NCBI GenBank assembly: GCA_016188545.1 | Contig: JACPHO010000002.1 | Coordinates: forward strand, 64,013 to 128,012 | Direction: 5' to 3' | Origin: Candidatus Shapirobacteria bacterium | GTDB lineage: Bacteria; Patescibacteriota; Microgenomatia; UBA12405 | Length of the DNA: 64,000 bases | Shown here: piece by piece, positions 15,808-59,347 of the stretch | Layout of the letters: each line of letters begins with the position of its first letter | Position numbering within the stretch: the stretch's first letter is position 1 | The notes under the pieces: generated by a model | What the model was told of the DNA's origin: nothing | What the model saw: the letters and a program-made list of their open reading frames with translations, nothing else | Databases searched by the model: none | Made by a program: the position numbers and the translations under genes

Positions 15808-16074
15808 ATGACTATAACAGTGCAAATATCAGACTTTCGAAATAACATGGCAATGTATTTAGCAAAATTGAAAGTGGGACAAATTATTGATATCAAAAAA
15901 GGAGGTAAGTATTTAGCAAAACTTTCAAAACATCCTAAGGCAGTTGAAACTAGAGAATATAAAGATGCTGACGAATTTATGGCTAAGTTGAAGAAAATAT
16001 GGTCAATGCAGGCAAAAAGTAAAAAGAAGACCAATTACAGTATGAGAGTGGATGAAATCTTGTATGGTAAATAA
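15808..16074 (+). CDS. Phd/YefM-like antitoxin
   Basis: 88-aa protein. N-terminal ISDFRNNMAMYLAKLKVGQIIDI resembles the antitoxin fold. 3' end overlaps the downstream PIN gene by 23 nt. Confidence 0.55.
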   Translation: MTITVQISDFRNNMAMYLAKLKVGQIIDIKKGGKYLAKLSKHPKAVETREYKDADEFMAKLKKIWSMQAKSKKKTNYSMRVDEILYGK

Positions 16075-16474
16075 AAAAATCCTGATCGATAGTTGTGTTT
16101 GGATTGCGTTTTATGACAAAAACGACAGACAGCATGAAAAAGCAGTAGAATATTTTGAAAAAAATAAAGAGAAACAGTTTTTATATGTTATACATTTTTT
16201 GGTGTTAATCGAAACTTTGTCAATTTTGAAATATAAAAAGTTCGACCCTGAGATATTAAAAGAAATTAGAAGGCATGCCTCTGGTACTGAAGAAATTGAG
16301 ATTGTTAAAAGGGGTGAAATTAACTTATCACCAAAGATGTGGGGGTTATTTGAAACGGTTAACAGACTTGGAGTAGTAGACGTAATTTTGCTTGACTATT
16401 GTCTTAAAAATAATATGGAGATAGTTACTTTTGATGTGGCATTGAATGAATTGTGGAAGAAACTAGTTTTTTGA
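16052..16474 (+). CDS. vapC: PIN-domain ribonuclease toxin (VapC-like)
   Basis: N-terminal ILIDSCVWIAFYDKND (acidic D-x-x-x-x-D start) and C-terminal VVDVILLDYCLKNNMEIVTFD, typical of the PIN fold. Paired with the upstream antitoxin. Confidence 0.65.
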   Translation: MKSCMVNKKILIDSCVWIAFYDKNDRQHEKAVEYFEKNKEKQFLYVIHFLVLIETLSILKYKKFDPEILKEIRRHASGTEEIEIVKRGEINLSPKMWGLFETVNRLGVVDVILLDYCLKNNMEIVTFDVALNELWKKLVF

Positions 16475-17579: not shown

Positions 17580-18596
17580 CTAGAAAAGGGTAGTTTGAGT
17601 GGATGTTGACACAGGCTGGGGAGGTTTTTGAGGATGGCGACGACGGATTCGTGATAAGAGAGATTTGAAGTTGTATTCTGCAAACAACTTTTCTAAGGAG
17701 AGGTAGGTGCCGGGGAGTAACTTGGCAGAACGGAGGGTAAATTTGAGTGGAATATTGGTAACCAAAGAGGCTAACTTTTGACTAAGATAGGCATTTTCCT
17801 TGTCTTTGAGGAGCTTTGATTTGACGGTGTCTTTGATCTCTGATGATTTTTCAAGAGCGGAATAGATATTATCCAAAGTTCGATACTTGGTTAATAGATC
17901 AGTAGCGGTCTTGGGACCAATGCCTTCAATCCCAGGATAATTATCCGATTGATCCCCCATCAAGGCCTTGAGGTCAACCACCTGATTGGGATTGACACCC
18001 AGTCGCTCTTTAACTGCCTCCGAGTCATAGACCTTGGTAACTGACAACCCTTGAACTGGCACGAAAAGATTAACTTTGTCGTCAACCAGTTGCATTAGAT
18101 CTTTATCGCCAGTAATAATGGTGACTTGGGTAATGATTTTTTTACCCTTTTTATGGCGCCTCAATGATTTTTTGGTGATTGTAGCGATAAGGTCGTCGGC
18201 TTCAAAGCCACCCATGGAATAATGAGAGATTCCAGCAGATTCTAATGTTTTAGGTAGGAGCGGAAGCTGAGTTTTAAGGTCAACATCGGCGGGTTTTCGT
18301 TGGGCGCGGTAACCGACAAACTCTTCATTTCGAAAATTGGGGCCTGGTGAGTCAAGACAGACAATAAGATACTTTGGTTTGAGGGTGTCGAGAGCCGAAA
18401 GAATCATCGAATAAAAACCATAAATAGCGTTGACAGGCTGACCATTGGAAGTAAGTGGGGGGATGGAGTGATAAGCACGGTGGGCTATGGCGTGACCGTC
18501 GACTATGACTAGATGAGACATAGGATAGTTTAGCAAGTTCATAAAGTTGGAGAGATAAGGTAGAATTTTAGGAGATGGAACAGCACGCAATTCCAC
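17580..18596 (-). CDS. Stand-alone 5'-3' exonuclease / flap endonuclease (Pol I N-terminal-domain-like)
   Basis: HLVIVDGHAIAHRAYHSIPPLTSNGQPVNAIYGFYSMI…YLIVCLDSPGPNFRNEEFVGYRAQR (PIN-like 5'-3' exo N domain). H3TH motif GDQSDNYPGIEGIGPKTATDLL. Confidence 0.8.
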   Translation of the reverse strand: MELRAVPSPKILPYLSNFMNLLNYPMSHLVIVDGHAIAHRAYHSIPPLTSNGQPVNAIYGFYSMILSALDTLKPKYLIVCLDSPGPNFRNEEFVGYRAQRKPADVDLKTQLPLLPKTLESAGISHYSMGGFEADDLIATITKKSLRRHKKGKKIITQVTIITGDKDLMQLVDDKVNLFVPVQGLSVTKVYDSEAVKERLGVNPNQVVDLKALMGDQSDNYPGIEGIGPKTATDLLTKYRTLDNIYSALEKSSEIKDTVKSKLLKDKENAYLSQKLASLVTNIPLKFTLRSAKLLPGTYLSLEKLFAEYNFKSLLSRIRRRHPQKPPQPVSTSTQTTLF

Positions 18597-19504
18597 AGCA
18601 GATTTCGTCGTACGAATTCAAACTGGTGGGAGACATGACACTTAAGCAATTTTTGAAGGCCGCAGTGGGAATAGTATTGGCGGTAGCTATTAATGCAACT
18701 AATTTGATTTTTTTCCTTAAATATCCGCTAATGTTGATATTTGGTGGAGGTGGACTGATGATGGCATTTGTACCCTTTCAAGATAGACCACTAGAAACTT
18801 GGGTAATTGCATTCTTAAGATCAATTTATTCTCCGACAATTTATACATACAAAAAAATGCCGGATAAAGACTGGATAAGTTTGATGAATAGCAAATCTGT
18901 AGGAAGAGATAAGACCCTTGATGAAGCAGAAGAAGTGTCAGTGCCAGTGAAAGACAGTAATAAGGTCAGGGAGTTTATAGAATCTTTGCCAACAGTAAAA
19001 ATGAGCGAAGCGGTGATAGATGAACCAATAGAGGAAGACGAGAGGACATTGATTGGAAAAATCGGAATGGGGGGAAATACTAACAAACTTCCTGAAAGAG
19101 AATCTGATGTACCAGTAAAAACAGAGGAACCACCAAAAGAAAATTGGCGTGACAAAAAAGCAGAACTGGGGTTGAAAGCTGATAAAGTCGAGGCAACGGC
19201 TAAAGTTGTTTTTGGCGAAATTCCAATGCCAGATAAACCAGATATTCCAAATATGATGGTAGGAATGGTAACTAACAGTGAGGAGAAAATTGTAGATGGG
19301 GCAATTGTAGAGGTACAGGATAGTAAAGGAAACCCGAGTAGAGTGCTAAAGACAAACTCCCTGGGACAATTTAGAACAACCACTCCACTTTCGAATGGTA
19401 AATATTTGATCATTACTGAAAAAGAAAAGCTAGAATTTGACAGAGTCGAAGTCGAACTGGTCGGCAAAATAGTAGAACCAGTAAAAATAAAGGCGATAGT
19501 ATGA
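18575..19504 (+). CDS. PrgI/VirB3-like T4SS membrane protein
   Basis: N-terminal ISSYEFKLVGDMTLKQFLKAAVGIVLAV followed by a second TM helix, then a soluble tail. Resembles PrgI-family proteins that sit directly upstream of VirB4 in Gram-positive-type T4SS. Confidence 0.45.
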   Translation: MEQHAIPQQISSYEFKLVGDMTLKQFLKAAVGIVLAVAINATNLIFFLKYPLMLIFGGGGLMMAFVPFQDRPLETWVIAFLRSIYSPTIYTYKKMPDKDWISLMNSKSVGRDKTLDEAEEVSVPVKDSNKVREFIESLPTVKMSEAVIDEPIEEDERTLIGKIGMGGNTNKLPERESDVPVKTEEPPKENWRDKKAELGLKADKVEATAKVVFGEIPMPDKPDIPNMMVGMVTNSEEKIVDGAIVEVQDSKGNPSRVLKTNSLGQFRTTTPLSNGKYLIITEKEKLEFDRVEVELVGKIVEPVKIKAIV

Positions 19505-20354: not shown

Positions 20355-22973
20355 ATGGATATTTTTAACTTAATTAAAAAAAACAAAAAAACTCCGGCAG
20401 AAATGGCAGCAGCGGTGGTGGATGTTAAAACTGGATTGATTGATCAGGGTAAGACTAAAGAGAGACAATTTGTAGAAGGGTTGGTCTCAACTAAAGATAT
20501 TATTGCTCCTGGTGCTTTGGAGGTTGAAACTGATTTTATCAAGATCGGAACTAAATTCTATCGAACTCTTTTTACAGTAATAAACAGACGTTTTGTGGAA
20601 ATTAACTGGCTATCAACTTTAATCAATTTCGATGCATCCTTGACGGTAGCCATGTACATCTACCCATCAGATGGTAAGGAAATTTTGGATGATCTTCGAC
20701 GTAAAATCACAGAAATGGAGGCAGAACTAACAACTGATATCCAAAGAGGGAGGATTGTAAACCCAGCAACACAAGCCAAACTTGAGGATGCCCTGAATCT
20801 ACAAGCTGACTTGGTTAAAGGTGAGGAAAGATTTTTCCAAATGGGTTTGTATATTACGGTAAGTGCTGAAAGTAAAGAACAGATGGATAAGGTGACCAAG
20901 AACTTAGAGGCAGCTATGGGTGCTCTAATGGTATTGACCAAGAGAACAACATTTGATGCTGAGAATGCCTTTATTACTACCCTACCACTTGGTTCTGATC
21001 GACTTAACCTTACTCGGAACATGGATACAACCTCACTGGCGACAACATTTCCATTTGTTTCATCTGATCTTTCTGACGATAAAGGGATTATGTTTGGAAT
21101 TAATGAACATAATGGATCACTAGTTATTTTCGACCGATTCTCAATGCAAAACTACAACTCTGTAGTATTTGCAACAGCTGGAGCTGGAAAGTCTTACATG
21201 ATTAAATTGGAGGCTTTACGGTCGCTAATGATGGGAACAGATATTATTGTAATCGACCCGGAAAATGAGTACAAAGATTTGTGTGAGGCGGCTGGTGGAC
21301 AATACATTGCTTTTGGGTATGGTGAAGCATCGAAGATTAATCCTTTTGACTTGTCTCTAATTGTTGATGAAGGTGATAATGCACTGAATGCCAAGATTTT
21401 GGGGGTACATAAACTACTAAAAGTAATGCTTGGTGAACTGGATCCAATCGAAGAATCCATTCTTGACCGAGCGGTAGTTGACGCTTACAAAATGAAAGGA
21501 ATTACTCCAGATCCAGAGACACAGTCAAAAGAGCCGCCATTGGTCGAAGATTTGTATAAATCACTAATTGGAATGGAGGATAAACAGGCGCAGATGATAG
21601 CGGCTCGGCTGGAAAAATATATTAAAGGATCGTTTGCGGGGATTTTTAACCAAAAAACAACAGTTAATTTGAAAAGCGAGTTTGTGGTTTTTGGAATAAA
21701 AAACCTGGAAGATACTCTGCGACCGGTGGCCATGCATATTATTCTTGACTACATCTGGACAGTAGTTAAGAAAGAAATGAGAAGAAGAATCTTAGTTGTC
21801 GACGAGGCGTGGTACCTAATGCAATACCCCGATTCGGCAGCATTCTTACGAGGAATTGTTAAACGAGGAAGGAAATACTATCTTGGGGTAACTACAATCA
21901 CTCAGGATGTAGATGACTTTTTGGAAACAGCCTATGGACGCGAAATCGTAACTAACAGCGCCATTCAAATTCTTCTAAAACAACACAGTGCGGCAATTGA
22001 CCAAATTGGGGAGGTTTTTTACTTATCTGAGGGAGAAAAACAACTACTTTTGTCAGCGGACAAAGGAGAAGGTATTTTCTTTGCCGGCCAAAATCATGTG
22101 GCAATTAGAGTGGTGGCGTCGGAAGATGAACATAAACTAATTACATCTAACCCAGAAGAGGTAATGAAGATGAAACAACAACTGAAGTTGCAGAGAGCAA
22201 AAGAGGCTGAAGATAGGCGGGTGGAAAGAGAAGCAATGGGACCACTTGGGACTAGCGACATCATTAAACAAATGGGTAAAACAGAGGAACCCTTAGTAAA
22301 AACAACAGAACCAGAATTGGTACTAACTAAACCTCCTGAAACGCTGGAAAAAACGGTAGTTCAATCACCTATAATGGTAACTGAGGTGGTGGGAGATACT
22401 AAACCAGAAGAAGAGCTGCAAAAAAGAATTGCTGAAATGGAGGCAGTTGAAAAAGAAAAGGTGGAAGAACATAAGAAAAAAGTTGCGGCAGAGGCTGAAG
22501 TATTAGCAAAAGAAGAAGTCGAAAAAAAGAAGCTTCAAGGAACTTTGGGTGGTTTTGGAACTCTACCAAAATATCAGGATTTATTTGTTAATAAAAATAA
22601 ACTACCTCCATTACCACCATTGCCTCCCCTTCCAAAATTCCAACCATCTACTGCACCATCAGCAAGTTCGGGGCTAAATAGTGCACCAGCACCAGTAGCA
22701 CCAACAACGCTTCCAAAATCACCACAATTTGCGACCGAGGTAGTATCTAATACTGGCAAACCGACTTTTGTGAATTTACCGAAAGAAGAAGTAAAAGTAC
22801 CACAACCACCTCAATTGTCGAAGAAACCCCAACCAGTATTTGAAAATCAAACAATGCCACAGCCAGTAAGTACTCAACCGTCTACAGCAGCGACCATGCC
22901 AACTGATAAACCAAAAGATAACCAAAATAACGCTCCTGGAATGGACTATGACAAACTGTTTGGGAACGTGTAG
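20355..22973 (+). CDS. VirB4/TrbE/CagE-family T4SS ATPase with a ~250-aa Pro/Ala/Ser-rich C-terminal tail
   Basis: CagE_TrbE_VirB-type region (FYRTLFTVINRRFVEINWLSTLINFDASLTVAMYIYP). Walker A VVFATAGAGKSYMIK. Walker B ILVVDEAWYLM. Tail …KLPPLPPLPPLPKFQPSTAPSASS…. Confidence 0.85.
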   Translation: MDIFNLIKKNKKTPAEMAAAVVDVKTGLIDQGKTKERQFVEGLVSTKDIIAPGALEVETDFIKIGTKFYRTLFTVINRRFVEINWLSTLINFDASLTVAMYIYPSDGKEILDDLRRKITEMEAELTTDIQRGRIVNPATQAKLEDALNLQADLVKGEERFFQMGLYITVSAESKEQMDKVTKNLEAAMGALMVLTKRTTFDAENAFITTLPLGSDRLNLTRNMDTTSLATTFPFVSSDLSDDKGIMFGINEHNGSLVIFDRFSMQNYNSVVFATAGAGKSYMIKLEALRSLMMGTDIIVIDPENEYKDLCEAAGGQYIAFGYGEASKINPFDLSLIVDEGDNALNAKILGVHKLLKVMLGELDPIEESILDRAVVDAYKMKGITPDPETQSKEPPLVEDLYKSLIGMEDKQAQMIAARLEKYIKGSFAGIFNQKTTVNLKSEFVVFGIKNLEDTLRPVAMHIILDYIWTVVKKEMRRRILVVDEAWYLMQYPDSAAFLRGIVKRGRKYYLGVTTITQDVDDFLETAYGREIVTNSAIQILLKQHSAAIDQIGEVFYLSEGEKQLLLSADKGEGIFFAGQNHVAIRVVASEDEHKLITSNPEEVMKMKQQLKLQRAKEAEDRRVEREAMGPLGTSDIIKQMGKTEEPLVKTTEPELVLTKPPETLEKTVVQSPIMVTEVVGDTKPEEELQKRIAEMEAVEKEKVEEHKKKVAAEAEVLAKEEVEKKKLQGTLGGFGTLPKYQDLFVNKNKLPPLPPLPPLPKFQPSTAPSASSGLNSAPAPVAPTTLPKSPQFATEVVSNTGKPTFVNLPKEEVKVPQPPQLSKKPQPVFENQTMPQPVSTQPSTAATMPTDKPKDNQNNAPGMDYDKLFGNV

Positions 22974-22994
22974 GTGAACTGTATAATAAATTGA

Positions 22995-25900
22995 ATGAAG
23001 AAGTTTGAATTGTATGAAGAACTAGGGCGGCTATCCGGCAGAGGTGAAATACTGGAAATATCTAATGCGGCTTACAATACCTGCAGTAGGTTATTTTCTG
23101 ACTTGGGAATGGGTGGAAAGTTTGATCCGACAAACCCAGGAAGGATGTTGGATGCTTTATATGGATTTGAAACAACGACAGGTAATAACAATAAAGTCAC
23201 TCAAGCATTGGAAGTAATTGAAGCAGACTTGAATCCTGCTGTGGAAACAAGAAATGACAAGGTGGGTCCAATGTCACTTAGGTCAGATCAATTAAAAGTG
23301 CTGCTTGATAAAGTTGATGAGAAAAAACATAGGGATGACGTAGAAGCGATGGCAACTGAAGCAACAAGAGAAAGATTGCTAAGGAATGCAGACCGTAACA
23401 TAGTGGTGGCAACACTAATAAAAAAGTTTGAAATACAGGAAAAACTCCATTCGATGGGAAAAACGAAGGCAGAGGCAGATAGACTTTCCGACCTAATCCT
23501 GGAGACTGGGCAAGTAGTAACGACCATTGTTGAAGATGATGAGTTTTTAGGAAAGGAATCACTTAGGCTAGCCGAAGAAATTGTGGAGCTGTCAGAGAAA
23601 GCCAAAACAACGGTCGAGGCAGTAGAGCTAGCAAAATCACTACAAGCTGAAAACTCAATTATAGATGCCAATGAAATGTTGCAGTACTTAGTAGAGACGA
23701 ACAGAGCCAGCCGAGAACTAGAAATAAAAATTGATGAAATAGCTAGAGATGTGGTAGCTGATGTTGAAAGAGAAGGAGGTTCGCTTGGGGGTAGGAAAGA
23801 TGAAGTACTAAAACTAATTGAAGAGAGATATGAGAAGGTACTAGTACATCCTGAGTATAATATTAATGAAGCAAAATACGAAACGAGAATAGGTGAAAAC
23901 GGAAGGTATGAGCGGGTAGTTGTCGAAAGAGGACTGACTGAAGAAATAGTTGAAATACTGAAAGGCGGAGCCAGAGGAAATATTCCAGGTAGACAGGAAA
24001 AAATAATTGAAGCAGTGGTGGAAAATAAGCTGGGAGCATCAGCAACTCCACTAACTGACGTGACCAATGCATCAACCGGAAATGAAGCAAAAATGATGAT
24101 GGAGAAACTCACATCACATGGTTTTGGGGCGGCAGATTTGAAAGCATTAATGAGATTGAGGTCGGGAGCGACAGAGTCGGGAATTGAGGGGATTGAAAAT
24201 GGATTGACACAAGAACATGAAATAAAAATAAAGATGGTAGGAAAGGGAGTGCCAGCAACGAAAATTGCTGAGGTGGAAATGGGAACTGTGGTAACGTCGA
24301 TGTTAAATGGCGATGAACCAATACCAGAGTTAGTTCAGAGAATTGAAAATGACTACAAAGCGAAGTTAGTCGGCACAGAGCATGGTGAAAGGAGACGACT
24401 AAAAGATGGTGATGTGCGTGTTGTTTCAAGGGGGTCAATTCCGGAAATGGAAGCTGTAGTAAAGGTAGCTGATAGGCTAAAAGACAGACCGGATTTGCAG
24501 GGCAGAATGGAGCTAATTCGAAAAATTGAAAAGGCAAAGAATTTTATTGATAGATATTCAGGTGGAGCAATAAGCAAAGCAATGGGAAACTCATCAATCC
24601 AAATTGGGAGAATAATGAAGATTGAGGGACTACAGCAGTTTGGAATGCAACTGGCTAGTCGTTATGGCGGGGTTATGGGGGAGGCAATGGCCTCTCAAAT
24701 AGTGAATTTTGGTTTTGAAAAGGGCTTACAAAACATCTTAGTCCAATTGCTTAGAACTGGAACTGTAAAGGCAGTGGAAGTGGGAGCAACAGGTGCAACA
24801 GCGGCCGCGGGAACAGCCGCAACCGGAACAGCACTTGCGGCTGGAGGACCGCCGACATGGATAGTAGCAGCGGTTTTGGCGGCAATAGCAGTGGTAAAAA
24901 AGGCCTGGAGTGGAATGGAAAAGGGTTTGATAAAAATGTTGGAGTTTTTGGGATTTGACTCGTACAAAACCCGAGAGTTTTTGAAAAACGGGGTGGGAAA
25001 AATAGTAACCGTTGGGGGAATGGCCATTGGTGGGGCAACAACAGTGATAATTGGTATTGGAGGGATGTTGATGTCTATACCGACAGGGATAATAGGGACA
25101 GTTTTTGCGATTGTATTGGCAGTATTGATTGGATACAACCTGCTTCAAGTGGCAACAACCCAAGTATCAAGTTTGGTGGTGCCAAAATCAGATCCGATTG
25201 TGGGGGCATGTATCAAAAAAGAGGATTTAACAGATCCCCCAACCGGACCGTTGGCCAATTGTAATGTAAACGCACCAGCATCGAATTATGGAGGAATAAG
25301 TAAAGATGCGTTTGTAACCCTAGCAGAAAGTTGGTCGGCAGGTGGCGGAGTCAATGCGGCAAGATGTTTTAATGATGTGGTTTGTAAGGCTTTAAGTGCT
25401 GGCATTAATCCGACATATGCACTGTGGGCATGGCTACATGAATCAGGAGCTAGTAACTATTCACTCGGGAGTGATATTGAAGATTTTGGGATACATTACA
25501 TCCCAGAAAATAATAATTTTAATGCGCAATGGGAGGCATTTGCCAAACTTGATCCAGCCTCAGGCTGCTCAGGGATTTCAGATTATTGGTTGGCTTTTGC
25601 CACTAATTATCTGAATGGCTCAGACCATTGCGACCCTGATTATCAGAATCCAACTTCAGGACAAACAGGAAGACAATATTTAGCCGAACTGCAAAGTACT
25701 TGGGAATGGTTAAATGCTGGGCCAATGCCAACATCGATACATGTGCCAAAACAAGCTTGTGGTGGAGGATCTCCTGAGGGTGGGGTAGAAGAAACGGATC
25801 CGAATACAGGCGAGAACTTTGTCTGCTTTGGGGGAGCAAAACTAGGCCCAAGTACCCCTTTAAACGGAGCTAAGAGTGGTGGATCGGTGTACAATCCAAA

Positions 25901-26465
25901 CGCGACAGGGCTAGAGGGAGAGAAAATACCAGGTGAATGTACTGTGTCTGATAAAGTGGTGTTGACAAAGCAGTGTGGACAGGCCTGGTCAAATAAAGGG
26001 TTACCTGGAGGATCGGGGACAATCTGCACAGCCGGCTGTGGACCAACCTCAGTCTCAATGATGCTGAGACACTTTAATGGGAGCCTAACACCAGATTCGG
26101 TTATATTTTCACCAGGGTCGGCATACAACTCAATGAACAACGATGGATCTAGTTTGGGACAAGCAACGGCGGAAATAAATAAATATTTTCCAGGAGCGGC
26201 TAGTAGTTCACAACCATGTGATGCTAAAGCAATTGGTGGTTGGATCTGTGCTGGAAAGGTGGTAATGGTGCTAGCTGATTTTTATAACAGCAACAGCTTG
26301 ACAGTGGGAGGACATTTTGTGTTGGGAGTGGCGGTTCAGAATGGAAGCATTGTAACTGCTGATCCTTACTATGCTACCAAAACTCCGTTTGATGGAACTA
26401 AAAAATATGGGTATGCTAGAAATATTCGGAGTTGTATTACTATTGATGCGAGTAAAATTAAATAA
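22995..26465 (+). CDS. Large T4SS-associated membrane protein with C-terminal C39-like papain-fold domain (VirB1/PrgK-type hydrolase analog)
   Basis: N-terminal ~550-aa coiled-coil region. Gly/Ala-rich TM helices at about residues 590-710. C-terminal CTAGCGPTSVSMMLRHF (nucleophile Cys) and GGHFVLGVAVQNGSIVTADPYY (His/Asp) as in Peptidase_C39-like domains. Positioned right after VirB4. Confidence 0.55.
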   Translation: MKKFELYEELGRLSGRGEILEISNAAYNTCSRLFSDLGMGGKFDPTNPGRMLDALYGFETTTGNNNKVTQALEVIEADLNPAVETRNDKVGPMSLRSDQLKVLLDKVDEKKHRDDVEAMATEATRERLLRNADRNIVVATLIKKFEIQEKLHSMGKTKAEADRLSDLILETGQVVTTIVEDDEFLGKESLRLAEEIVELSEKAKTTVEAVELAKSLQAENSIIDANEMLQYLVETNRASRELEIKIDEIARDVVADVEREGGSLGGRKDEVLKLIEERYEKVLVHPEYNINEAKYETRIGENGRYERVVVERGLTEEIVEILKGGARGNIPGRQEKIIEAVVENKLGASATPLTDVTNASTGNEAKMMMEKLTSHGFGAADLKALMRLRSGATESGIEGIENGLTQEHEIKIKMVGKGVPATKIAEVEMGTVVTSMLNGDEPIPELVQRIENDYKAKLVGTEHGERRRLKDGDVRVVSRGSIPEMEAVVKVADRLKDRPDLQGRMELIRKIEKAKNFIDRYSGGAISKAMGNSSIQIGRIMKIEGLQQFGMQLASRYGGVMGEAMASQIVNFGFEKGLQNILVQLLRTGTVKAVEVGATGATAAAGTAATGTALAAGGPPTWIVAAVLAAIAVVKKAWSGMEKGLIKMLEFLGFDSYKTREFLKNGVGKIVTVGGMAIGGATTVIIGIGGMLMSIPTGIIGTVFAIVLAVLIGYNLLQVATTQVSSLVVPKSDPIVGACIKKEDLTDPPTGPLANCNVNAPASNYGGISKDAFVTLAESWSAGGGVNAARCFNDVVCKALSAGINPTYALWAWLHESGASNYSLGSDIEDFGIHYIPENNNFNAQWEAFAKLDPASGCSGISDYWLAFATNYLNGSDHCDPDYQNPTSGQTGRQYLAELQSTWEWLNAGPMPTSIHVPKQACGGGSPEGGVEETDPNTGENFVCFGGAKLGPSTPLNGAKSGGSVYNPNATGLEGEKIPGECTVSDKVVLTKQCGQAWSNKGLPGGSGTICTAGCGPTSVSMMLRHFNGSLTPDSVIFSPGSAYNSMNNDGSSLGQATAEINKYFPGAASSSQPCDAKAIGGWICAGKVVMVLADFYNSNSLTVGGHFVLGVAVQNGSIVTADPYYATKTPFDGTKKYGYARNIRSCITIDASKIK

Positions 26466-26468
26466 CCT

Positions 26469-26882
26469 ATGTGGAAAAATAAATTACTTTTGATAGCACT
26501 AGTACTGTTGGCAGTAGTAGCAGGACTAATTGCGTTGTTTGATAAACCCAGCGATGAGGAAGTAAAAAGTGTTCCGGCGGAAAAGGTGGTAATTCCAACC
26601 AGAATTAATGAGCCGTTTTTTAGTGATACCGGTGCTAAGGATGAACCGATGAGTGATGATGAGTACCGGGTGGGACAATTGATAAATAAATTTAGAAATG
26701 TCTGTCCAGTGAATAACGAATTTTTTGTAGTCGATTTTGATTATAAGATTGATAAATTTGTGGTGTATATAAAAGATTATTCGGAAAAAAACAGACTGGT
26801 ATTTCAAAAATATCTTGAAGATGCTGGGTATATTGAGATTCCTAGTTCATGGTTTGTTTATACTAATAATGTCTACAGGTAA
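26469..26882 (+). CDS. Small membrane-anchored protein
   Basis: N-terminal TM helix (LLLIALVLLAVVAGLIALF) and small soluble domain. In the T4SS module. Confidence 0.4.
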   Translation: MWKNKLLLIALVLLAVVAGLIALFDKPSDEEVKSVPAEKVVIPTRINEPFFSDTGAKDEPMSDDEYRVGQLINKFRNVCPVNNEFFVVDFDYKIDKFVVYIKDYSEKNRLVFQKYLEDAGYIEIPSSWFVYTNNVYR

Positions 26883-27258
26883 AGAAATATTGGCTAAAAA
26901 TCAAGTAGTGGTTTTCTTGGTAATTACGATTGTGTTGTTGGCAGGATTGAAGATAAAATATGGATACAGGGGAGAAGGTGAAAGTCAAAAGTCAAAAGTC
27001 AAAAGTCAAAACGAAGAAGTAAACATAACACCGACAATGACGATGGTGCCAACGACGGATCCGAAAAAGGATTTTCCGTTGAGAAACGAACTACCGTATT
27101 ACGGAAAAGGGTTTGTGGTGGAGAAATACACTTCACCATTGACTTTAAAAATGATTCTTAATGGCGCGACTGAGACATACGCTACCAAAGCGGTTACCGA
27201 CTGGATTAACTCATTTGGTGATGCGATAGGGCAACATAAAATAGAGATACAAAATTAA
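26815..27258 (+). CDS. Small membrane protein with an in-frame (AAAAGTC)n repeat
   Basis: Two TM helices. (AAAGTC/AAAAGT) repeats at 26975-27005 encode QKSKVKSQ. True start may be the internal Met at 26869, which would reduce overlap with the preceding gene. Confidence 0.4.
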   Translation: MKMLGILRFLVHGLFILIMSTGKEILAKNQVVVFLVITIVLLAGLKIKYGYRGEGESQKSKVKSQNEEVNITPTMTMVPTTDPKKDFPLRNELPYYGKGFVVEKYTSPLTLKMILNGATETYATKAVTDWINSFGDAIGQHKIEIQN

Positions 27259-27284
27259 AAATTCAAAAGTAAAAAGTAAAAAAT

Positions 27285-27584
27285 ATGAAAAAAATAATTT
27301 TAGGAATTGTTTTATCAACTTTAATTTTAAGTGGGTGTACAACAAAACAGAATACAGTTAAGACGGCTGAGGAGAAGTTGCAGGAAAGTGTGGTGACAAA
27401 AACAGGGACAATATCAACTAAAGTGGGAGATGAATATTTACTATCAACCAGAGATGGGATCGTAAATATTACCAGTAATAAAGTAAATCTTGATACTTAT
27501 ATGAAAAAACCAGTCAGAGTTACAGGGATGTTTTCTGGATCAACTCTTTACGTCGATAAAATCGAGAGTGCAATAACAAACTAG
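27285..27584 (+). CDS. Small lipoprotein
   Basis: Signal peptide with lipobox ILSGC-TT. Preceded by an (AAAAGT)n motif. Confidence 0.5.
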   Translation: MKKIILGIVLSTLILSGCTTKQNTVKTAEEKLQESVVTKTGTISTKVGDEYLLSTRDGIVNITSNKVNLDTYMKKPVRVTGMFSGSTLYVDKIESAITN

Positions 27585-50544: not shown

Positions 50545-52071
50545 TTATTTGCGTTTTACCCAGCCAAACAGTCCGGCGGTGTCACCAGCGGCATTTCTTA
50601 ATTTATCGCCAGTAGTAAGATTACCTGCATTATTGGGATCGTTATAGTATTCTTGTTGTTTTTGAGAGGCCAGTTGGGCACCAAGACGACCAGCTCCAGT
50701 AACAGGTGCAAAGGCACCTTTTGTACCTTCACCAATCGCCTTACCCCAGGGAGATGGTTTGATGGCGAAGACAAACTCAGGGATCATTTCAGGCAGTTTT
50801 GAGACTAGGGCAATTACTGAAAGACCAATACCGACAGAAATAATACTAGGTAGATTGGCCGTACCAAGCCCCCATGAGGTAAGGGCAGTGGGAATTGACA
50901 TGTTGGAAATGACGCTAGGAGCCCACATACCTTTTTTGGAAAAATCGACCAGCATGTTGCCAACTACCATGAAAATAAGTGACACAGGGAAAATGGCAAG
51001 ATTGGCGATAAGATCCCAAATCCAGGTACTAAATCCCATCTTGGAATTGGGGAAGGCACCCATAGCTAGCTCAAGAGGGGCGATAACTATTTTGAAAATT
51101 ACCGTAACATAGGCCTTAAGACAGCCAAAATAAAACTTGAACATCCAGATAACAACAAGGATTAGCATAACCAGTAGAACAATAACTGGAACAATTCCGA
51201 GAGCAGTAATCGACCACCCGCCAGTAGGAACGAGAAACATAGCAGCAATAATTGCACCAAGTATAAATCCCCAGTACATAAACATGGTTGTTGGTATAGC
51301 TCGGAAAGTTAAATCGGCGTAGGTACCAATACCGGCATTGGTCAGAGTGTCAAAAGAATAGTTTTTGGTGCCATCAAGAAGGTTGGCAGACAGACCTTTG
51401 CCAGTAACTTCAAAAAGCAGAGCGATAACTACACCCTGGACAAAAGTCATTAGGTCGATAAGTAAACCGGCGATAGCGTAGGAAAAAGTGACTAAAACGA
51501 GAGTGGTGATCAGTTGAGGGACAGCATTTTGGACGGTAACCACAGCTTGGGGGGAGATCTTGACCCGGAGCATAATCATGACACCGATAATGATAAAAAC
51601 AAGTGAGGAAAGCAAATAAACTATGTTACGAAAACCCCGCCAGATAGGTAAAATTGGCTGGAGACCAGCAAACCCAAAACCTTGCTGGGCATAGGCCGGT
51701 TTGCCAAGAAAACTATCCTTGAGGCCAGCCAAATATTGGAATCCAGAAGCGGGAGGAGTCCAGAGACTGGCAATCATTTGGTTGGTAAATCCCAACATGC
51801 CGGCGGGAATATAACTAGTGGCGGTGCCATTGAGAACACTGTCGGGAATCTTACCAGTGAGTATTTCTAGTGCGATAACAGCATTACTGTCAAGAGATTC
51901 TTTGAGCCAACGTTCTTGATTGTTGCCTTTGAGAATGGCGTCACTTTTCTTTTTGTAGACACTGTTTTGAGTCGGGGGAGTCTGAGCAAACAAAGGGGTG
52001 ATAAAAGAGAAAAATAAAAAACAAAAAGTAAAAATAAGAAACAGGCGACGCATGGTGAATAATTTTAACAT
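50545..52071 (-). CDS. VirB6/TrbL-like polytopic T4SS membrane protein
   Basis: Signal peptide MLKLFTMRRLFLIFTFCFLFFSFITPLFA-QTP (likely start 52071 or 52053, since the ORF extends to 52245). At least 6 TM helices. Precedes the pilin array. Confidence 0.4.
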   Translation of the reverse strand: MLKLFTMRRLFLIFTFCFLFFSFITPLFAQTPPTQNSVYKKKSDAILKGNNQERWLKESLDSNAVIALEILTGKIPDSVLNGTATSYIPAGMLGFTNQMIASLWTPPASGFQYLAGLKDSFLGKPAYAQQGFGFAGLQPILPIWRGFRNIVYLLSSLVFIIIGVMIMLRVKISPQAVVTVQNAVPQLITTLVLVTFSYAIAGLLIDLMTFVQGVVIALLFEVTGKGLSANLLDGTKNYSFDTLTNAGIGTYADLTFRAIPTTMFMYWGFILGAIIAAMFLVPTGGWSITALGIVPVIVLLVMLILVVIWMFKFYFGCLKAYVTVIFKIVIAPLELAMGAFPNSKMGFSTWIWDLIANLAIFPVSLIFMVVGNMLVDFSKKGMWAPSVISNMSIPTALTSWGLGTANLPSIISVGIGLSVIALVSKLPEMIPEFVFAIKPSPWGKAIGEGTKGAFAPVTGAGRLGAQLASQKQQEYYNDPNNAGNLTTGDKLRNAAGDTAGLFGWVKRK

Positions 52072-52072
52072 A

Positions 52073-53488
52073 TTAGAACTGCATTGATTCGGGTTGTAAT
52101 TGGCGGGCATAGGTGTTGAGAGTGTAGGGATTGCCTGGATCAAAGCTGTGACTGTCGGTGGAAGAAAAAGGACGATGGGGATCGTTGAGAGTGACGTCGG
52201 CTTCCTGGACATATTCAGGGATGAGGTTTTTGCGAGCGACTTCATCGATTTTCATATTGGCTTCCTGAGCGGGTTCGATGTGGTACTCGTAGGTGAGAGA
52301 GTGGGAGAAGGTCATAGCGGTCTCAAAGACAGTACCAAACTCTTCAAGGGACTGTTTGATGGCATAGAGCAGATCATTTGGTTTGTCGCGAATCTCATTT
52401 TTTTCATAGGTACCACAAAAATTGATGGGTGGAATGTCTTGACCGTCATAGTTGATAATGGCCAGTGAGTTAGCCGAAGCAAGAGATTCACCGCGGGGCA
52501 TGTTAGTTTTTTTGATTTCAGGGTTAACATCACGTTCATGGTCGTCGTTGTAGACAAAGACGCGACGCATACTGGGGCCACTGCCCTCAGGCCCTAAGGT
52601 TTTGTAGAGTTTGCAGGCTTCACTGGGGTCAAGAGCCTGAAAAGAGTCACTGGATGGGTCGGTAAAGTCACTGAGTCGGCCTGGAGTGGGAACGGGGAGG
52701 GAAGGATTAGTAGGATCATTGTTGTAGCAATTGTCATCGGGGTTGTAAAAGATTAGATTTTCTTCGGTGCCAGGAAGACAACGTCCAGTAGCAGGGTCGG
52801 TATTGACCAAAGATAGAGTGGGGTTTTGTTCCATGGTGATAGCAATGTCTTCGAGTTGAACTTTTTGACCGTCATCTTGATCGGAGTCGGTGACTGGTTT
52901 GGCGGAACCACCGTCGTACCAAGCAACTTGTTCATTACTGACAACTCCACCACCGGAGCCATTGGCTAATTTGACCGCTTTGACCAGTCTTTGGCCAACG
53001 AGACATTTGAGGACATCTTCGGGCATATTTTTGTTACCGGTGCCAATTGACCCTTCAGCATTGTCCGGAGTATAGGACATAAAGGAGCGGTTGATACTAT
53101 CAGTGTTGAGAAAATTCTTGGGATGGCTGTTGGTGGCTCGGTCGCGACCAAGGGCGGCAGGATTGGTCCAAAAACCTTTGTTGAATATGGGGGGACGGCC
53201 TTGGATTCGATTGACGTCGTAGGGGACAAAGGTAGTAGTTTGTTCACCAGTATTGGGATCAGTGGTGGTTTTTTCTTCAGGTTGGAAAGTTTGGGAAATG
53301 GTGAATTTACCGGTGCAAACTAGACCGACACTATTGGGATAATAGATGGAGTCATCAGAGAGAGCGGTGTCTGCAGGAGGTGAACCAGGGTCGGATCGTT
53401 TGATGATAATTGGGTTGAGAGCCAGAGCAGGAAAAGTAAAAAGTAAAAAGTTAAAAGTTAAAACAATAAATATGAAAACAGGTTTCAT
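52073..53488 (-). CDS. Secreted 471-aa protein of the T4SS/pilin locus
   Basis: Signal peptide MKPVFIFIVLTFNFLLFTFPALA-LNP encoded by an (AAAAGT)n repeat. Asp/Pro/Thr-rich mature protein. Function unknown. Confidence 0.5.
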   Translation of the reverse strand: MKPVFIFIVLTFNFLLFTFPALALNPIIIKRSDPGSPPADTALSDDSIYYPNSVGLVCTGKFTISQTFQPEEKTTTDPNTGEQTTTFVPYDVNRIQGRPPIFNKGFWTNPAALGRDRATNSHPKNFLNTDSINRSFMSYTPDNAEGSIGTGNKNMPEDVLKCLVGQRLVKAVKLANGSGGGVVSNEQVAWYDGGSAKPVTDSDQDDGQKVQLEDIAITMEQNPTLSLVNTDPATGRCLPGTEENLIFYNPDDNCYNNDPTNPSLPVPTPGRLSDFTDPSSDSFQALDPSEACKLYKTLGPEGSGPSMRRVFVYNDDHERDVNPEIKKTNMPRGESLASANSLAIINYDGQDIPPINFCGTYEKNEIRDKPNDLLYAIKQSLEEFGTVFETAMTFSHSLTYEYHIEPAQEANMKIDEVARKNLIPEYVQEADVTLNDPHRPFSSTDSHSFDPGNPYTLNTYARQLQPESMQF

Positions 53489-53896
53489 TTAGTGGCTGGG
53501 GATAATAAAGTTGGTAACGTCGGCACCGGTAATTTTTTTGATGAGTTGAAGAATTAGGTAGGAAGAGACAACACCAACTAACCCAAGAATAGACATGGTA
53601 AGAGTGGATGAGGCAGTGGCAACTCGTTTTTGATCACCACTACTAAAAAGATATTGAAAACCACCATTGATAAACATGACAAAAAAAATGATACCGGCGA
53701 GACCAACTATGACTTGGAGGATGTTACCAAAAAGACACTCGAGACCTTGGAGAGTAGCGACATCGCCTTGAGCGAGGCATTTTCCAGACCAGGTGGATTG
53801 GGCTTGGGCTGGAATAGCGAAAGAAAAAAGAAAAAAGTAAAAAGTAAAAATAAATTGGAAAAAACGATTTCTCATGGGTAGATTATACAAAATCAA
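53489..53896 (-). CDS. VirB2/TrbC-like pilin paralog 1
   Basis: Sec signal peptide (…AIPAQA-QS), then two hydrophobic helices separated by the loop FSSGDQKRVATAS. About 105-aa mature protein. Confidence 0.45.
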   Translation of the reverse strand: MILYNLPMRNRFFQFIFTFYFFLFSFAIPAQAQSTWSGKCLAQGDVATLQGLECLFGNILQVIVGLAGIIFFVMFINGGFQYLFSSGDQKRVATASSTLTMSILGLVGVVSSYLILQLIKKITGADVTNFIIPSH

Positions 53897-53941
53897 CGTT
53901 GATTTACGAAATATGATTCATGATTTAAGAATAGAACAAAA

Positions 53942-53965
53942 ATATCCCCGAGAAATCGGGGATAT
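53942..53965 (-). terminator. Perfect 10-bp stem hairpin followed (minus sense) by a T-rich tract, between pilin paralogs
   Basis: ATATCCCCGAGAAATCGGGGATAT. Read on the minus strand it is followed by TTTTGTTCTATTC, 25 nt after the stop of the 53990..54385 pilin gene. Confidence 0.55.
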
Positions 53966-53989
53966 TTTGATTTGTGATTGATTCCTTGG

Positions 53990-54385
53990 TTATTGGAAGG
54001 AAGGAACTTTGAATCCAGAGAGAAGCTGAATACCGAAAACGGTTTCGATGAGCTTCATAATGGCAAAAGCAGCAAAGACAATAGCCAAACCAATGAGGGC
54101 ATTGGTGATTTGGGCTCGGGCGGCTTCGACGGCTTTTTGATCACCTTCGGACATGACCCATTTGAGACCACCCCAGATGAGGATGAAGAAGAAAACCAGG
54201 GCGACAACCAACATAACTAAACTAATGGCACCGGAAATGATACCACCAAAGGTTAATTTGGTAAGGTTGTTCCAATTGCTGTCGTTGGGAATCAGTTTGA
54301 TATCTTGGGCGTAAACCGGAGCAGCGATAGCTGCGTATTGGACGAGATCTTTGAACTTTTGGACCATAATAGGTGTGTTTTTCAA
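53990..54385 (-). CDS. VirB2/TrbC-like pilin paralog 2
   Basis: Hydrophobic helix 1 (GGIISGAISLVMLVVALVFFFILIWGG), loop MSEGDQKAVEAARAQ, helix 2 (ALIGLAIVFAAFAIMKLI). Confidence 0.45.
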   Translation of the reverse strand: MKNTPIMVQKFKDLVQYAAIAAPVYAQDIKLIPNDSNWNNLTKLTFGGIISGAISLVMLVVALVFFFILIWGGLKWVMSEGDQKAVEAARAQITNALIGLAIVFAAFAIMKLIETVFGIQLLSGFKVPSFQ

Positions 54386-54430
54386 TAAATTATTAATAAT
54401 TAGCTAATTGTAACAGTAAAGTAAATAAAA

Positions 54431-54820
54431 TTAAAGTGTAGGCCAAGTGATGGTAAGAGTGCTTAGTCCAGGGATACCAAGGACTATACCGACAAACTTG
54501 AGGATGGCAAAAATAGAAAAAACGACAAACAGACCGATGGTGGCATAAGTCATTTCATTCTTGCCTGACTCCCACCTTTTGGGATCACCCTCAGAGGCGA
54601 TCAGGTGATAGCCAGCAAAAACTATGTGCCAAACATAGTAAATTATGCCGACAATGAAAAAGATGGAAAAAACGGTTGAAAGGACGCTGTTAAAATAGGT
54701 TTTGGGAGCTGTAGAAGAGGTACAGTTTTTGAGAATGGGATTGCAAATGACCGCATGGACTGGGGTAGAAAAGTAAAAAGTAAAAAGTAAAAAGTAAAAA
54801 GTGGAAATTAGTTTTTTCAT
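54431..54820 (-). CDS. VirB2/TrbC-like pilin paralog 3
   Basis: Signal peptide MKKLISTFYFLLFTFYFSTPVHA. Helix, loop IASEGDPKRWESGK, helix. Confidence 0.45.
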   Translation of the reverse strand: MKKLISTFYFLLFTFYFSTPVHAVICNPILKNCTSSTAPKTYFNSVLSTVFSIFFIVGIIYYVWHIVFAGYHLIASEGDPKRWESGKNEMTYATIGLFVVFSIFAILKFVGIVLGIPGLSTLTITWPTL

Positions 54821-54822
54821 AT

Positions 54823-55179
54823 TTAGAGACCCATTTGGGTGAATAAAGCATTAATGTCGAGGACATTGGTGATACCAGCCAGGGTGGCAATGAGAGAACC
54901 AAGGCCAACAGCAACGATAACAATGGTAAGACCAAGGACACCATTGGTGAGTCGGCTACGGGCAGCAGCCATATTTTTTTCGTCTCCTTGGGAGTTAATG
55001 TAAGAATAACCGGCGAGAATTATTTGAATGGCAAACCAAATAACAGCAAAGATGGTGAGAACACCAATTACTTGACCAACTATTTTTTCAAGAGCAGCGA
55101 CACCGTTGCCAGCAGGTTTGACACCTGGGCCAATGATTTCGGGAACATTAACATCAGCGAGTAGGCGATTAGGGTCCAT
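54823..55179 (-). CDS. VirB2/TrbC-like pilin paralog 4
   Basis: Same helix-loop-helix architecture with loop YINSQGDEKNMAAARS. No long signal peptide. N-terminal region may be processed differently. Confidence 0.4.
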   Translation of the reverse strand: MDPNRLLADVNVPEIIGPGVKPAGNGVAALEKIVGQVIGVLTIFAVIWFAIQIILAGYSYINSQGDEKNMAAARSRLTNGVLGLTIVIVAVGLGSLIATLAGITNVLDINALFTQMGL

Positions 55180-55555
55180 AAATGACTGGGGCTAAAATTT
55201 TAATCCCGGTAAATCTTTCGACAACCGAGGCAATTACAAAAGCGGAGGCAATAATAACCATACCGAGGATACTCTGCCAGATTTGGGTCCAAGCAGTGGC
55301 GGCAGCTTTAGGGTCGCCAGCCGAGTTGATATAAGCATATCCAGCTAGAATTAGCTGGATGATCATATAGATACCACCAATAGTACCGGCGAATTTTAGG
55401 ACATTACCTAAAAATATGAACAGGCCCTGACCGTTGGGACTGGCGTATTTGGGGAGTGGGTTGGTGATGCCACCGATGACGCCTTGAGCTTGCGCTGGCA
55501 GCGCAGAGTAAAAAGTTAAAAGTAAAAAGTTAAAAGTTAAAAAAACTTGTTTCAT
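55169..55555 (-). CDS. VirB2/TrbC-like pilin paralog 5
   Basis: Signal peptide MKQVFLTFNFLLLTFYSALPAQA-QG. Helix, loop YINSAGDPKAAATA, helix. Confidence 0.45.
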   Translation of the reverse strand: MKQVFLTFNFLLLTFYSALPAQAQGVIGGITNPLPKYASPNGQGLFIFLGNVLKFAGTIGGIYMIIQLILAGYAYINSAGDPKAAATAWTQIWQSILGMVIIASAFVIASVVERFTGIKILAPVIYGP

Positions 55556-55559
55556 TTAT

Positions 55560-55901
55560 TTATAGTCCGGAGTTTAATATTTTTAGACCAGTAGTAACTT
55601 CAACTATTTGAACTATGAAGTAAGCGGTGATCACAATGACGAAGCCAATAATAGCGTCGGTTACTAAGGCTTTGCCTTGAGCAGACTTTTTGGAATCACT
55701 ACTGCCTGCGCCAATTATAACCATTAGACCGCCAAAAATCAAAAGAATAAGTAAAATTGTGCCAGCAATGGTAAATGAGTTTTTTACGATTACCGAAATC
55801 AATGATGAAAGAGTGGGAAAAGTTTGTGAGAGAGTTTTACCTGTGCCAGTGGGTGGATCAATAGCGATGGCGAGGAGGCGATTCATGGCGTAATTATACA
55901 A
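55560..55901 (-). CDS. VirB2/TrbC-like pilin paralog 6
   Basis: 113 aa. Helix (TIAGTILLILLIFGGLMVIIGA), loop GSSDSKKSAQGKA, helix (AIIGFVIVITAYFIVQIV). Confidence 0.4.
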   Translation of the reverse strand: MYNYAMNRLLAIAIDPPTGTGKTLSQTFPTLSSLISVIVKNSFTIAGTILLILLIFGGLMVIIGAGSSDSKKSAQGKALVTDAIIGFVIVITAYFIVQIVEVTTGLKILNSGL

Positions 55902-56886: not shown

Positions 56887-56912
56887 GATTTATGATTTAT
56901 GAATAGAACAAA

Positions 56913-58310: not shown

Positions 58311-58334
58311 TTTATGATTTAAGATTTATGATAT

Positions 58335-59345: not shown

Positions 59346-59347
59346 TC

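Follow-up and report, generated by a model that had tools for sequence, protein, structure and literature searches.

The type IV secretion systems (T4SSs) described for Patescibacteria are chromosomal and lie near dnaA and dnaN; their VirB4 ATPase is MPF-FATA-like, with PrgI and TrsD encoded directly upstream, no relaxase or coupling protein is found nearby, and an array of divergent VirB2-like pilins is encoded elsewhere in the genome (PMC10633639, PMC12102498). TrsD is the commonest T4SS component of Patescibacteria, and the split between VirB4 and TrsD is typical of them; homologues of VirB1 and VirB6 are scarce in Microgenomatia, where other glycosidases might substitute (PMC12102498). The main text of that study contains none of the terms 'C39', 'proline' and 'disordered', and its sole mention of 'C-terminal' concerns the CHAP domain of VirB1. 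In S. epibionticum the gene order is PrgI, TrsD-like, VirB4 (1839 nt, about 612 aa), SEML1_0007 and SEML1_0006, all scored essential; SEML1_0007 (1113 aa) stands directly after virB4 and has a C-terminal DD-peptidase fold, and SEML1_0006 has two lysozyme-like domains and a cysteine proteinase domain (PMC10633639 supplement). A design in which a large VirB4-adjacent envelope protein ends in a wall peptidase and a lysozyme-like activity is present besides is therefore already on record. Here we analyse a 64,000-nt stretch of the genome of a Candidatus Shapirobacteria bacterium, a member of the Microgenomatia (assembly GCA_016188545.1, contig JACPHO010000002.1, positions 64,013 to 128,012 of the forward strand; 'the window' below), in which a virB4 gene with an unusual tail is followed by a gene for a large membrane protein that ends in a C39-like peptidase domain and is, in our reading, probably the wall hydrolase of a T4SS.

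The two genes are co-directional (20355..22973, +, 872 aa, and 22995..26465, +, 1156 aa, from the open reading frame (ORF) listing and translation) and are separated by a gap of 21 nt. The first encodes a VirB4 that matches the NCBIfam profile conju_CD1110 (NF045971) with 380.3 bits (cut-off 325), residues 37-584 aligning to positions 178-734 of 752; in Pfam it matches P-loop_TraG, AAA_10 and DUF87, and it has Walker A (GAGKS, 276-280) and Walker B (VVDEAW, 481-486) motifs. Profile positions 1-177 are missing, so that the N-terminal membrane-proximal domain is not part of the same polypeptide. The missing part is matched by the upstream gene for a 239-aa TrsD-like protein, which aligns to positions 2-104 of the CD1110 VirB4 profile and, in VirB4_plasma, to 105-233, and which also matches NCBIfam TrsD (E 4.4e-11); a TraC-like annotation (PF26593) is precomputed for the identical protein in locus L006 and for the orthologues in L001 and L003. 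The first gene of the operon encodes a 309-aa protein whose Pfam PrgI match (24.4 bits, residues 6-89) falls under the gathering cut-off of 27 and which has hydrophobic segments within residues 21-62. With a hidden Markov model (HMM) of our own, a PrgI-like gene was found upstream of TrsD-VirB4 in most related loci, and a weak PrgI match is precomputed in L003. On one side the locus is flanked by dnaN, dnaA, yidC and ftsH, and on the opposite side by genes for a 5'-3' exonuclease, a glycosyltransferase and a thioredoxin-reductase-like protein; no tRNA or Rfam features were found in the 64-kb window. Three metagenomic loci with close VirB4 homologues (L001-L003) show the order exonuclease, PrgI-like, TraC-like/TrsD, VirB4 (835-922 aa), a 1068-1129-aa Peptidase_M23 protein, small genes, dnaN and dnaA, which is the arrangement of the window with M23 replacing C39. 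All of the features named above for Patescibacteria T4SSs are shared by the window, including a large gene after virB4 that ends in a wall-peptidase domain. The best overall explanation, which we consider likely though by a distance not certain, is that the region is the core operon of a chromosomal, oriC-proximal T4SS, comprising PrgI/VirB3-like, TrsD-like and VirB4 proteins and a large envelope hydrolase.

An original prediction, made from the DNA alone, had described the second product as 1156 aa long, with a multi-transmembrane segment and a C-terminal papain-fold, C39-like domain. The length and the hydrophobic segments agree with this, and the similarity to cysteine peptidases, whose absence would have counted against the prediction, is present at the level of sequence. 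Peptidase_C39_2 (PF13529) is the sole Pfam match of the protein, with 25.6 bits for the whole sequence (residues 1011-1125) and 30.1 bits when the domain is scored by itself, the gathering threshold being 24. All 29 aligned relatives match PF13529 (best E 3.5e-12), 12 of them also DUF3335 and six also, weakly, Peptidase_C39 (PF03412). Gln993 and Cys1015 are each conserved in 40/41 sequences and His1107 and Asp1123 in 41/41; the motifs CGPTSVSMML, GGHFVLGVAV and ADP occupy residues 1015-1024, 1105-1114 and 1122-1124. Searched against the Protein Data Bank (PDB), the C39 profile had its best match, at no better than E 1.4e-4, in a DUF4150 protein of 156 aa, where the alignment brings the Cys and His motifs together. 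An NCBI record identical to the 1156-aa product is named 'C39 family peptidase', and tblastn with the C-terminal half returned no plasmid matches and one weak phage match. Peptidase_C39_2 is listed among the catalytic domains found in endolysins of phages that infect Gram-positive bacteria (PMC8223927), a context that shows the family in use against cell walls. The domain in the window resembles that of phage endolysins, and the C39 domain of ABC exporters, in being, judged by sequence, a Cys/His/Asp papain-fold peptidase with an upstream Gln; it differs from both in that it is not phage-encoded, is not fused to an ABC transporter and is part of a T4SS membrane protein. As far as we checked, C39 is indeed a distinct choice for a T4SS wall hydrolase, as had been proposed: orthologues use Peptidase_M23, and no tie between C39 and VirB1-type hydrolases was found in the literature searched.

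What the domain inventory of the prediction missed is a conserved region of about 180 residues between the membrane segments and C39, which we call MID. A word-based homologue search with the whole protein returned the query alone, because low-complexity words dominate, and relatives were therefore collected with the C-terminal 432 aa and then by an exhaustive HMMER search. The relatives of the C-terminal 432 aa share residues ~745-925 and end in Peptidase_M23, or in nothing, instead of C39, and the exhaustive search found the MID family in 322 cluster representatives. Mapping of the modules gave a recurrent order of N-region, transmembrane (TM) region, MID and then C39 or M23; in many other proteins MID stands C-terminal to unrelated N-termini. 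In an alignment of 43 sequences a Trp, a Glu-Ser pair, a DFG, a Gln and four Cys are invariant. The AlphaFold2 (AF2) model of MID is confidently all-alpha (pLDDT 90.3, pTM 0.86), with the invariant Glu816 at the end of the helix spanning model residues 64-75.

This fold, the invariant Glu-Ser and FG motifs, and the fact that the top structural matches, although non-significant, are wall glycosidases led us to call MID lysozyme-like. The best PDB matches in Foldseek were a GH73 glucosaminidase (8yxk), g-type lysozymes (3gxk, 1gbs), a GH23 chitinase and Listeria Auto, and the best matches in BFVD were SLT, LT_GEWL and transglycosylase proteins. Like GH73 enzymes (FlgJ, Auto, AtlA-type) and GH23 goose-type lysozymes and SLT, MID is predicted to be all-alpha with Glu-Ser at a helix end, and as in FlgJ an FG motif follows some 12-15 residues on (HESGAS...DFGIH in MID, LESGWG...NLFGVK in FlgJ). 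It differs from all of them in its four invariant cysteines, in a distinct C-terminal half and in the absence of any significant sequence, profile or Foldseek score. Several results speak against the assignment. The MID of the window protein has no Pfam match, and only 2/43 members hit Glucosaminidase, at E 0.12; the MID profile found nothing among PDB sequences; hhalign against the GH73 domain of E. coli FlgJ, as a single sequence and as a 3-sequence alignment, gave a probability <1%; and none of the Foldseek matches reached significance (all E>=0.5, TM-scores 0.39-0.47). When alignment of MID with FlgJ was forced in hhalign, the Glu-Ser and FG motifs were paired, which we do not count as evidence. 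On balance MID is probably a highly divergent lysozyme-like glycosidase or lytic transglycosylase that belongs to neither GH73 nor SLT. A non-enzymatic MID, acting as a structural or a wall- or pilus-binding module beside a peptidase that is the sole catalytic activity, would explain the absence of significant similarity to glycosidases and the fact that MID is the sole recognizable C-terminal module in the proteins of pilin loci. We consider this unlikely, though it is the strongest of the alternatives, because the invariant Glu-Ser at the C-terminus of a helix and the invariant DFG mirror the LESGWG...NLFG of GH73, wall glycosidases consistently head the fold matches in both libraries, and polar residues that never vary are expected in an active site more than in a module that merely binds.

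To place MID in its genomic setting, the species genomes of GTDB were scanned with a MID pattern, and the 73 loci obtained were annotated with purpose-built HMMs together with 10-kb flanks. All 73 are titled as Microgenomatia-type candidate phyla radiation (CPR) lineages or bear evidently automatic labels. MID lies next to T4SS genes in 46/73: 27 loci of the VirB4-adjacent type (class A), L052, and 18 adjacent to pilin arrays (class B). In class A, where VirB4 is directly upstream in 22/27 loci and complete in 20, the putative hydrolase has no signal peptide and consists of a long N-region, 2-5 TM segments, MID and then C39 or M23; C39 was found in nine loci, M23 in 16, and no terminal peptidase was detected in two, one of which is cut by a contig end. 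In class B loci, 8-11 genes for VirB2-like pilins stand in an array, followed by one for a protein with a signal peptide and a terminal MID and then by one for a polytopic protein, and PrgI-TrsD-VirB4 fell inside the fetched 10-kb flank in 12/18. Class C (Dojkabacteria; L035-L047 and L053) comprises secreted proteins of ~716 aa, often in tandem pairs, with MID at ~210-390 and ~320 residues after it; T4SS genes were not detected within 10 kb of them. In the M23 variants the H, D and HxH residues are kept without exception. A ranking by MID/TM similarity does not separate C39 from M23 types but mixes them, so that the peptidase was probably exchanged more than once; by sequence, the terminal peptidase is an exchangeable slot, occupied by C39, M23 or, in Saccharibacteria, an M15-like domain. 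The architectures singled out as atypical by the original prediction are so relative to textbook systems, but they are the norm within their own clade. Several loci with the Shapirobacteria-type synteny PrgI-TrsD-VirB4-hydrolase-dnaN-dnaA (L007, L008, L017, L022, L027, L031 and others) bear titles such as 'uncultured Gammaproteobacteria bacterium' and 'Candidatus Methanoperedens sp.'; these oddly titled records of metagenome-assembled genomes (MAGs) are probably mislabelled or contaminated.

The region before MID indicates how the protein may be arranged in the envelope. Its first 530 residues are 34% charged, with 2.3% Pro and one Cys, and the N-terminal 740 aa give no Pfam match at E<=1; the N-region is alignable at 27-33% identity to those of the M23-type orthologues P0130, P0131, P0133 and P0135, and a signal-like N-terminal segment was seen in 0/20 VirB4-adjacent orthologues. 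The TM region is conserved in orthologues, all class A loci having 2-5 hydrophobic segments 40-60 aa before MID. Fourteen of the 16 Cys of the protein lie after residue 739 and four Cys are invariant in MID, which suggests that MID is extracytoplasmic. The simplest topology compatible with hydropathy and the distribution of Cys would be N-in/C-out, with an N-region of ~600 aa in the cytoplasm and the C-terminal domains outside.

We propose that the 1156-aa protein acts as a membrane-anchored, bifunctional cell-wall hydrolase of the VirB1 type. The three membrane segments would place MID and C39 outside the membrane, only a few nanometres away from the wall of the cell itself, where MID, with Glu816 as presumed general acid, would cut glycan strands and C39 (Gln993, Cys1015, His1107, Asp1123) would cut peptide stems or cross-links; jointly they may open a local gap in the peptidoglycan for the secretion channel and a VirB2-like pilus. 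We infer both activities and the own-wall substrate. Since MID, a probable glycosidase-like domain, stands beside C39, the protein would be bifunctional in the manner of PrgK, TraG and TcpG. It shares with PrgK (pCF10), TraG (pIP501), TcpG (pCW3) and CD419/TrsG a place in a T4SS operon and, if the sequence-based predictions hold, a membrane anchor and a combination of glycan-cleaving and peptidase modules, and its position after virB4 is occupied likewise in 22 of the GTDB loci and in L001-L003. It differs from them in having no Pfam match to SLT, GH73, CHAP, NlpC/P60 or LytM, in a putatively cytoplasmic N-domain of ~600 aa, in three predicted TM segments where those proteins have one anchor at the N-terminus, and in that MID is not recognizable by sequence as SLT or GH73. 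In place of a CHAP, NlpC/P60 or LytM peptidase it has C39_2, and its orthologues have M23/LytM; C39_2, CHAP and NlpC/P60 all have the papain-like cysteine peptidase fold. In comparison with described Patescibacteria systems, the terminal peptidase is C39_2 rather than M15-like or M23, MID is within the same protein rather than there being a separate PF01832/PF18013 lysozyme protein, and VirB4 has a tail of ~270 aa, whereas the whole VirB4 of S. epibionticum has ~612 aa.

Some observations weigh against this interpretation as a whole. The topology rests on a hydropathy scan, and the loop after the first hydrophobic segment is Lys/Arg-rich, which misfits the positive-inside rule for a model with three TM segments. 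The AF2 model of the C-terminal 432 aa (six sequences) was poor, with an overall pLDDT of 48.5 and 50-59 in the C39 part, and was not used for a fold search. Among solved structures, the C39 profile comes closest to a PAAR-like (DUF4150) protein, to BtrH and to CdiA toxin domains, with no wall hydrolases among these relatives.

The presence of PAAR-like and CdiA toxin domains among these relatives would also suit a different target, namely the wall of the host bacterium, which MID and C39 would attack where the two cells touch, by themselves or once freed from the membrane, as an offensive tool with which an epibiotic parasite breaches the host envelope. Membrane-anchored hydrolases of the PrgK and TraG type act on the wall of the producer, which argues against such a target. 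MID starts only ~28 residues past the last membrane segment, which suggests that the producer keeps the enzymes at its own membrane, and neither a cleavage site nor a secretion signal was identified. All cultivated Patescibacteria live as obligate epibionts and cannot grow on the host without their T4SS (PMC10633639, PMC12857230), and a peptidase that can be exchanged between C39, M23 and M15-like forms could track the cross-link chemistries of hosts; even so, we judge the host wall to be an improbable target, somewhat more so than a non-enzymatic MID. Less probable still is that the C39-like domain is a processing protease, as in bacteriocin ABC exporters, which matures VirB2-like pilins or a secreted substrate. 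Six of the 29 family members do match canonical Peptidase_C39, and processing is needed for the N-terminal leaders of the six pilin paralogues encoded in the genome. Yet the same slot is filled in orthologues by Peptidase_M23 with intact metal ligands and in Saccharibacteria by a DD-peptidase fold, both of them wall-peptidase families; C39 shares its polypeptide with MID, whose partner is otherwise M23; no ABC transporter domains were found by Pfam in the 1156-aa protein or in neighbouring genes; and Peptidase_C39_2 is catalogued as an endolysin catalytic domain (PMC8223927).

The second unusual feature of the operon is the tail of VirB4. Past the core there are ~270 residues (288 after the last profile-matched residue), so that the protein does not end early after the ATPase domain. 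The prediction of a ~250-residue tail rich in P/A/S/T/Q and foreign to canonical VirB4 was largely borne out: the tail is real and lies beyond the end of the CD1110 profile, and other Microgenomatia VirB4 proteins (575-655 aa) lack it, having 9-30 aa in its place. Its composition had been described only half correctly, as only residues ~736-860 are P/S/T/Q/A-rich (Pro 0.17-0.23 vs 0.027 in the core), whereas residues ~601-735 are rich in Glu and Lys (E+K up to 0.50). The first half is weakly conserved (mean identity to the query 0.27 vs 0.83 in the core) and contains a semi-conserved helix motif, EELQKRIAEMEA, which is also found in the tails of L007, L008 and L027. Against a fast-evolving background, an alignment of 115 sequences keeps several islands at >=80%: LPKYxDLF, LPPLP..LP, KPxF, (I/V)PQPPQLxKK and a C-terminal DYDxLFG, the last of which, like IPQPPQL, is visible in nearly all homologue tails. 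By sequence, such islands are the pattern typical of a disordered region with short linear docking motifs. A tail of >=150 aa (median 248) is present in 116/121 of the closest VirB4 homologues (59-100% identity), and an independent Logan assembly contains identical 872-aa and 1156-aa genes; together with the conserved motifs, these findings answer the concern that the tail might stem from a frameshift or an assembly error. The view of the tail as low-complexity drift devoid of function, or as an error of sequencing or assembly, is largely refuted and can be set aside as extremely improbable, for although the mean conservation of the tail is low (0.27-0.46 vs 0.83 in the core) and its length varies from 170 to 430 aa, it is in frame in 116/121 homologues, has four or five motifs conserved at >=80% and is identical in the independent assembly.

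The distribution of the tail follows that of the putative hydrolase. VirB4 has 763-1073 aa in 20/20 loci with an adjacent hydrolase and 575-655 aa in 13/13 loci with a secreted MID protein (the 13 loci with a complete, non-adjacent VirB4 include L052, which has no pilin array or gene for the polytopic protein nearby); the long tail and the adjacent membrane-anchored hydrolase thus co-occur in 20/20 loci vs 0/13. As the tail is found only where that hydrolase adjoins, we suggest that it is a cytoplasmic, largely disordered extension whose conserved short linear motifs most likely tether or dock VirB4 to the cytoplasmic domain of the hydrolase or to another partner, so that the ATPase would be coupled to the envelope module. 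This is the weakest step of our explanation: docking is a conclusion that we drew from co-occurrence, and the co-occurrence may reflect the shared ancestry of one clade rather than function. One class B VirB4 of apparently similar length (L049, 867 aa) was considered as tail-bearing and rejected, its extra length being an internal, intein-like insertion. This virB4 gene from a Patescibacteria MAG (L049, 8488-11088) is split after core position ~263 by an insert of at least 600 aa, in appearance an intein that includes a homing-endonuclease region.

A second T4SS locus was found on the opposite strand of the window (Table 1); its VirB2-like pilin array lies ~27 kb from virB4, as described for Microgenomatia and Saccharimonadia. 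The six pilin genes are directly followed by genes for a secreted 471-aa protein and a polytopic 566-aa protein, the latter probably starting near Met59. Neither protein has a Pfam match, and a Pfam search at E<=1 with three large ORFs near the pilin array also returned nothing. Over 172 aa the 471-aa protein shares 32% identity with the N-terminus of P0003, which follows a pilin array in L005 and ends in MID; judged by sequence, it is an orthologue of the N-terminal part of P0003. The order of pilins, MID protein and polytopic protein resembling the 566-aa protein recurs in 18 loci, and the 566-aa protein is a candidate for the 'missing' VirB6 of Microgenomatia. A gene for a 7TM_transglut protein and three genes for ATP-grasp/RimK-like ligases lie beside the pilin array both in the window (56050-60348) and in L005 (58-4377). 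An AAA_14/DUF4143 ATPase gene (47067-48329, +), situated between a DUF6909 gene and a gene for a 715-aa protein, is absent at the corresponding position of L005 and is thus possibly an insertion.

Table 1. Coordinates of the T4SS-related features in the window (residue numbers refer to the protein concerned)
Feature	Position	Strand	Basis or remark
PrgI/VirB3-like membrane protein, 309 aa, with C-terminal CarboxypepD_reg-like domain	18575..19504	+	First gene of the T4SS operon
TrsD/TraC-like protein, 239 aa	19580..20299	+	Homologous to the N-terminal domain absent from the VirB4 of the window
VirB4 ATPase core, residues 1-600, CD1110/MPF-FATA type	20355..22154	+	NCBIfam, Pfam, Walker motifs
VirB4 tail, first half, residues 601-735, Glu/Lys-rich	22155..22559	+	Composition, column conservation
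VirB4 tail, second half, residues 736-872 and stop, Pro-rich with short conserved motifs	22560..22973	+	Motif positions, conservation in 115 homologues
Tail motif LPKYQDLF	22563-22586	+	
Tail motif LPPLPPLPPLP, residues 750-760	22602-22634	+	9-bp x 2.1 tandem repeat underneath
Tail motif VPQPPQLSKK	22797-22826	+	
Tail C-terminal motif MDYDKLFGNV	22941-22970	+	
Putative hydrolase, N-terminal region, residues 1-615, highly charged, presumed cytoplasmic	22995..24839	+	Composition, no signal peptide
Membrane region rich in Gly and Ala; three hydrophobic stretches at residues ~616-641, 670-695 and 699-717	24840..25145	+	Kyte-Doolittle scan
MID, residues 745-925, unannotated all-alpha domain (predicted)	25227..25769	+	43-sequence alignment, AF2 model
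MID invariant motif WLHESGASNY	25431-25460	+	Glu816 at 25440-25442
MID motif EDFGIH	25479-25496	+	
Cys-containing linker, residues 926-1005, with Gln993 (25971-25973)	25770..26009	+	LINK module recovered with C39 in relatives
Peptidase_C39_2, residues 1006-1156 and stop	26010..26465	+	PF13529
Predicted C39 catalytic residues Cys1015, His1107 and Asp1123	26037-26039, 26313-26315 and 26361-26363	+	Family conservation
Three small genes after the putative hydrolase: two for membrane-anchored products (137 and 147 aa), one for a lipoprotein-like product (99 aa)	26469..27584	+	N-terminal hydrophobic segments
Second T4SS locus: pilin array, 471-aa protein, 566-aa protein	50545..55901	-	Pfam, hydropathy, synteny
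Polytopic 566-aa protein	50545-52245	-	At least six hydrophobic segments
Secreted 471-aa protein	52073-53488	-	Follows the pilin array directly
Six tandem VirB2-like pilin genes, 113-135 aa	53489-55901	-	All six match PF18895 T4SS_pilin

Three small genes follow the putative hydrolase and are possible accessory components of the T4SS, their membership being uncertain. The 99-aa product weakly resembles TrsH and a lipoprotein signal peptide, and small genes occupy the same downstream position in L001-L003, with no detectable homology to those of the window. The ORFs for the 137- and 147-aa products (26469-26882 and 26815-27258) overlap by 68 nt in different frames. We considered them as a frameshifted copy of the single, syntenic 312-336-aa gene of L001 and L003; no similarity to that gene was detectable, and a frameshift is thus unsupported.

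Elsewhere in the window, a PIN-domain toxin-like gene (16052-16474, +), preceded by a small ORF (15808-16074), lies between the thioredoxin-reductase-like and glycosyltransferase genes, where L001 and L003 carry other small genes. Two dockerin-bearing proteins, with cohesin and Toxin_7 matches as well, are encoded at 60358-63209 (+), cellulosome-type modules in a CPR genome.

What sets this locus apart are the C39_2 module, the MID module and the tail of VirB4; the rest refines a system already described, and no new machine is implied. MID is a conserved, unannotated domain that marks T4SS loci across Microgenomatia, and in the GTDB scan it was found only in Microgenomatia-type genomes. The swappable terminal peptidase may track differences in wall chemistry, and the co-occurrence of tail and hydrolase gives a testable hypothesis, that of an ATPase wired to envelope remodelling. 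A bolder possibility, which we regard as doubtful when all its parts are taken together, is that MID is an unrecognized family of wall glycosidases dedicated to T4SSs, restricted to Microgenomatia and filling the place of the 'missing VirB1', and that the YxDLF, PPLPP, PQPPQL and C-terminal DYDxLFG motifs of the tail dock onto the ~600-aa, putatively cytoplasmic N-domain of the hydrolase. If this were true, a secretion ATPase would control an extracellular wall hydrolase mechanically across the membrane, with an analogue in the control of PcsB/EnvC-type hydrolases by FtsEX; to our knowledge, such coupling has not been described for any T4SS. Few machines besides the T4SS have been shown to be indispensable to Patescibacteria as epibionts. 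For the large class Microgenomatia, in which no VirB1 and hardly any VirB6 has been recognized, the locus offers a concrete candidate for the wall-opening component of the system.

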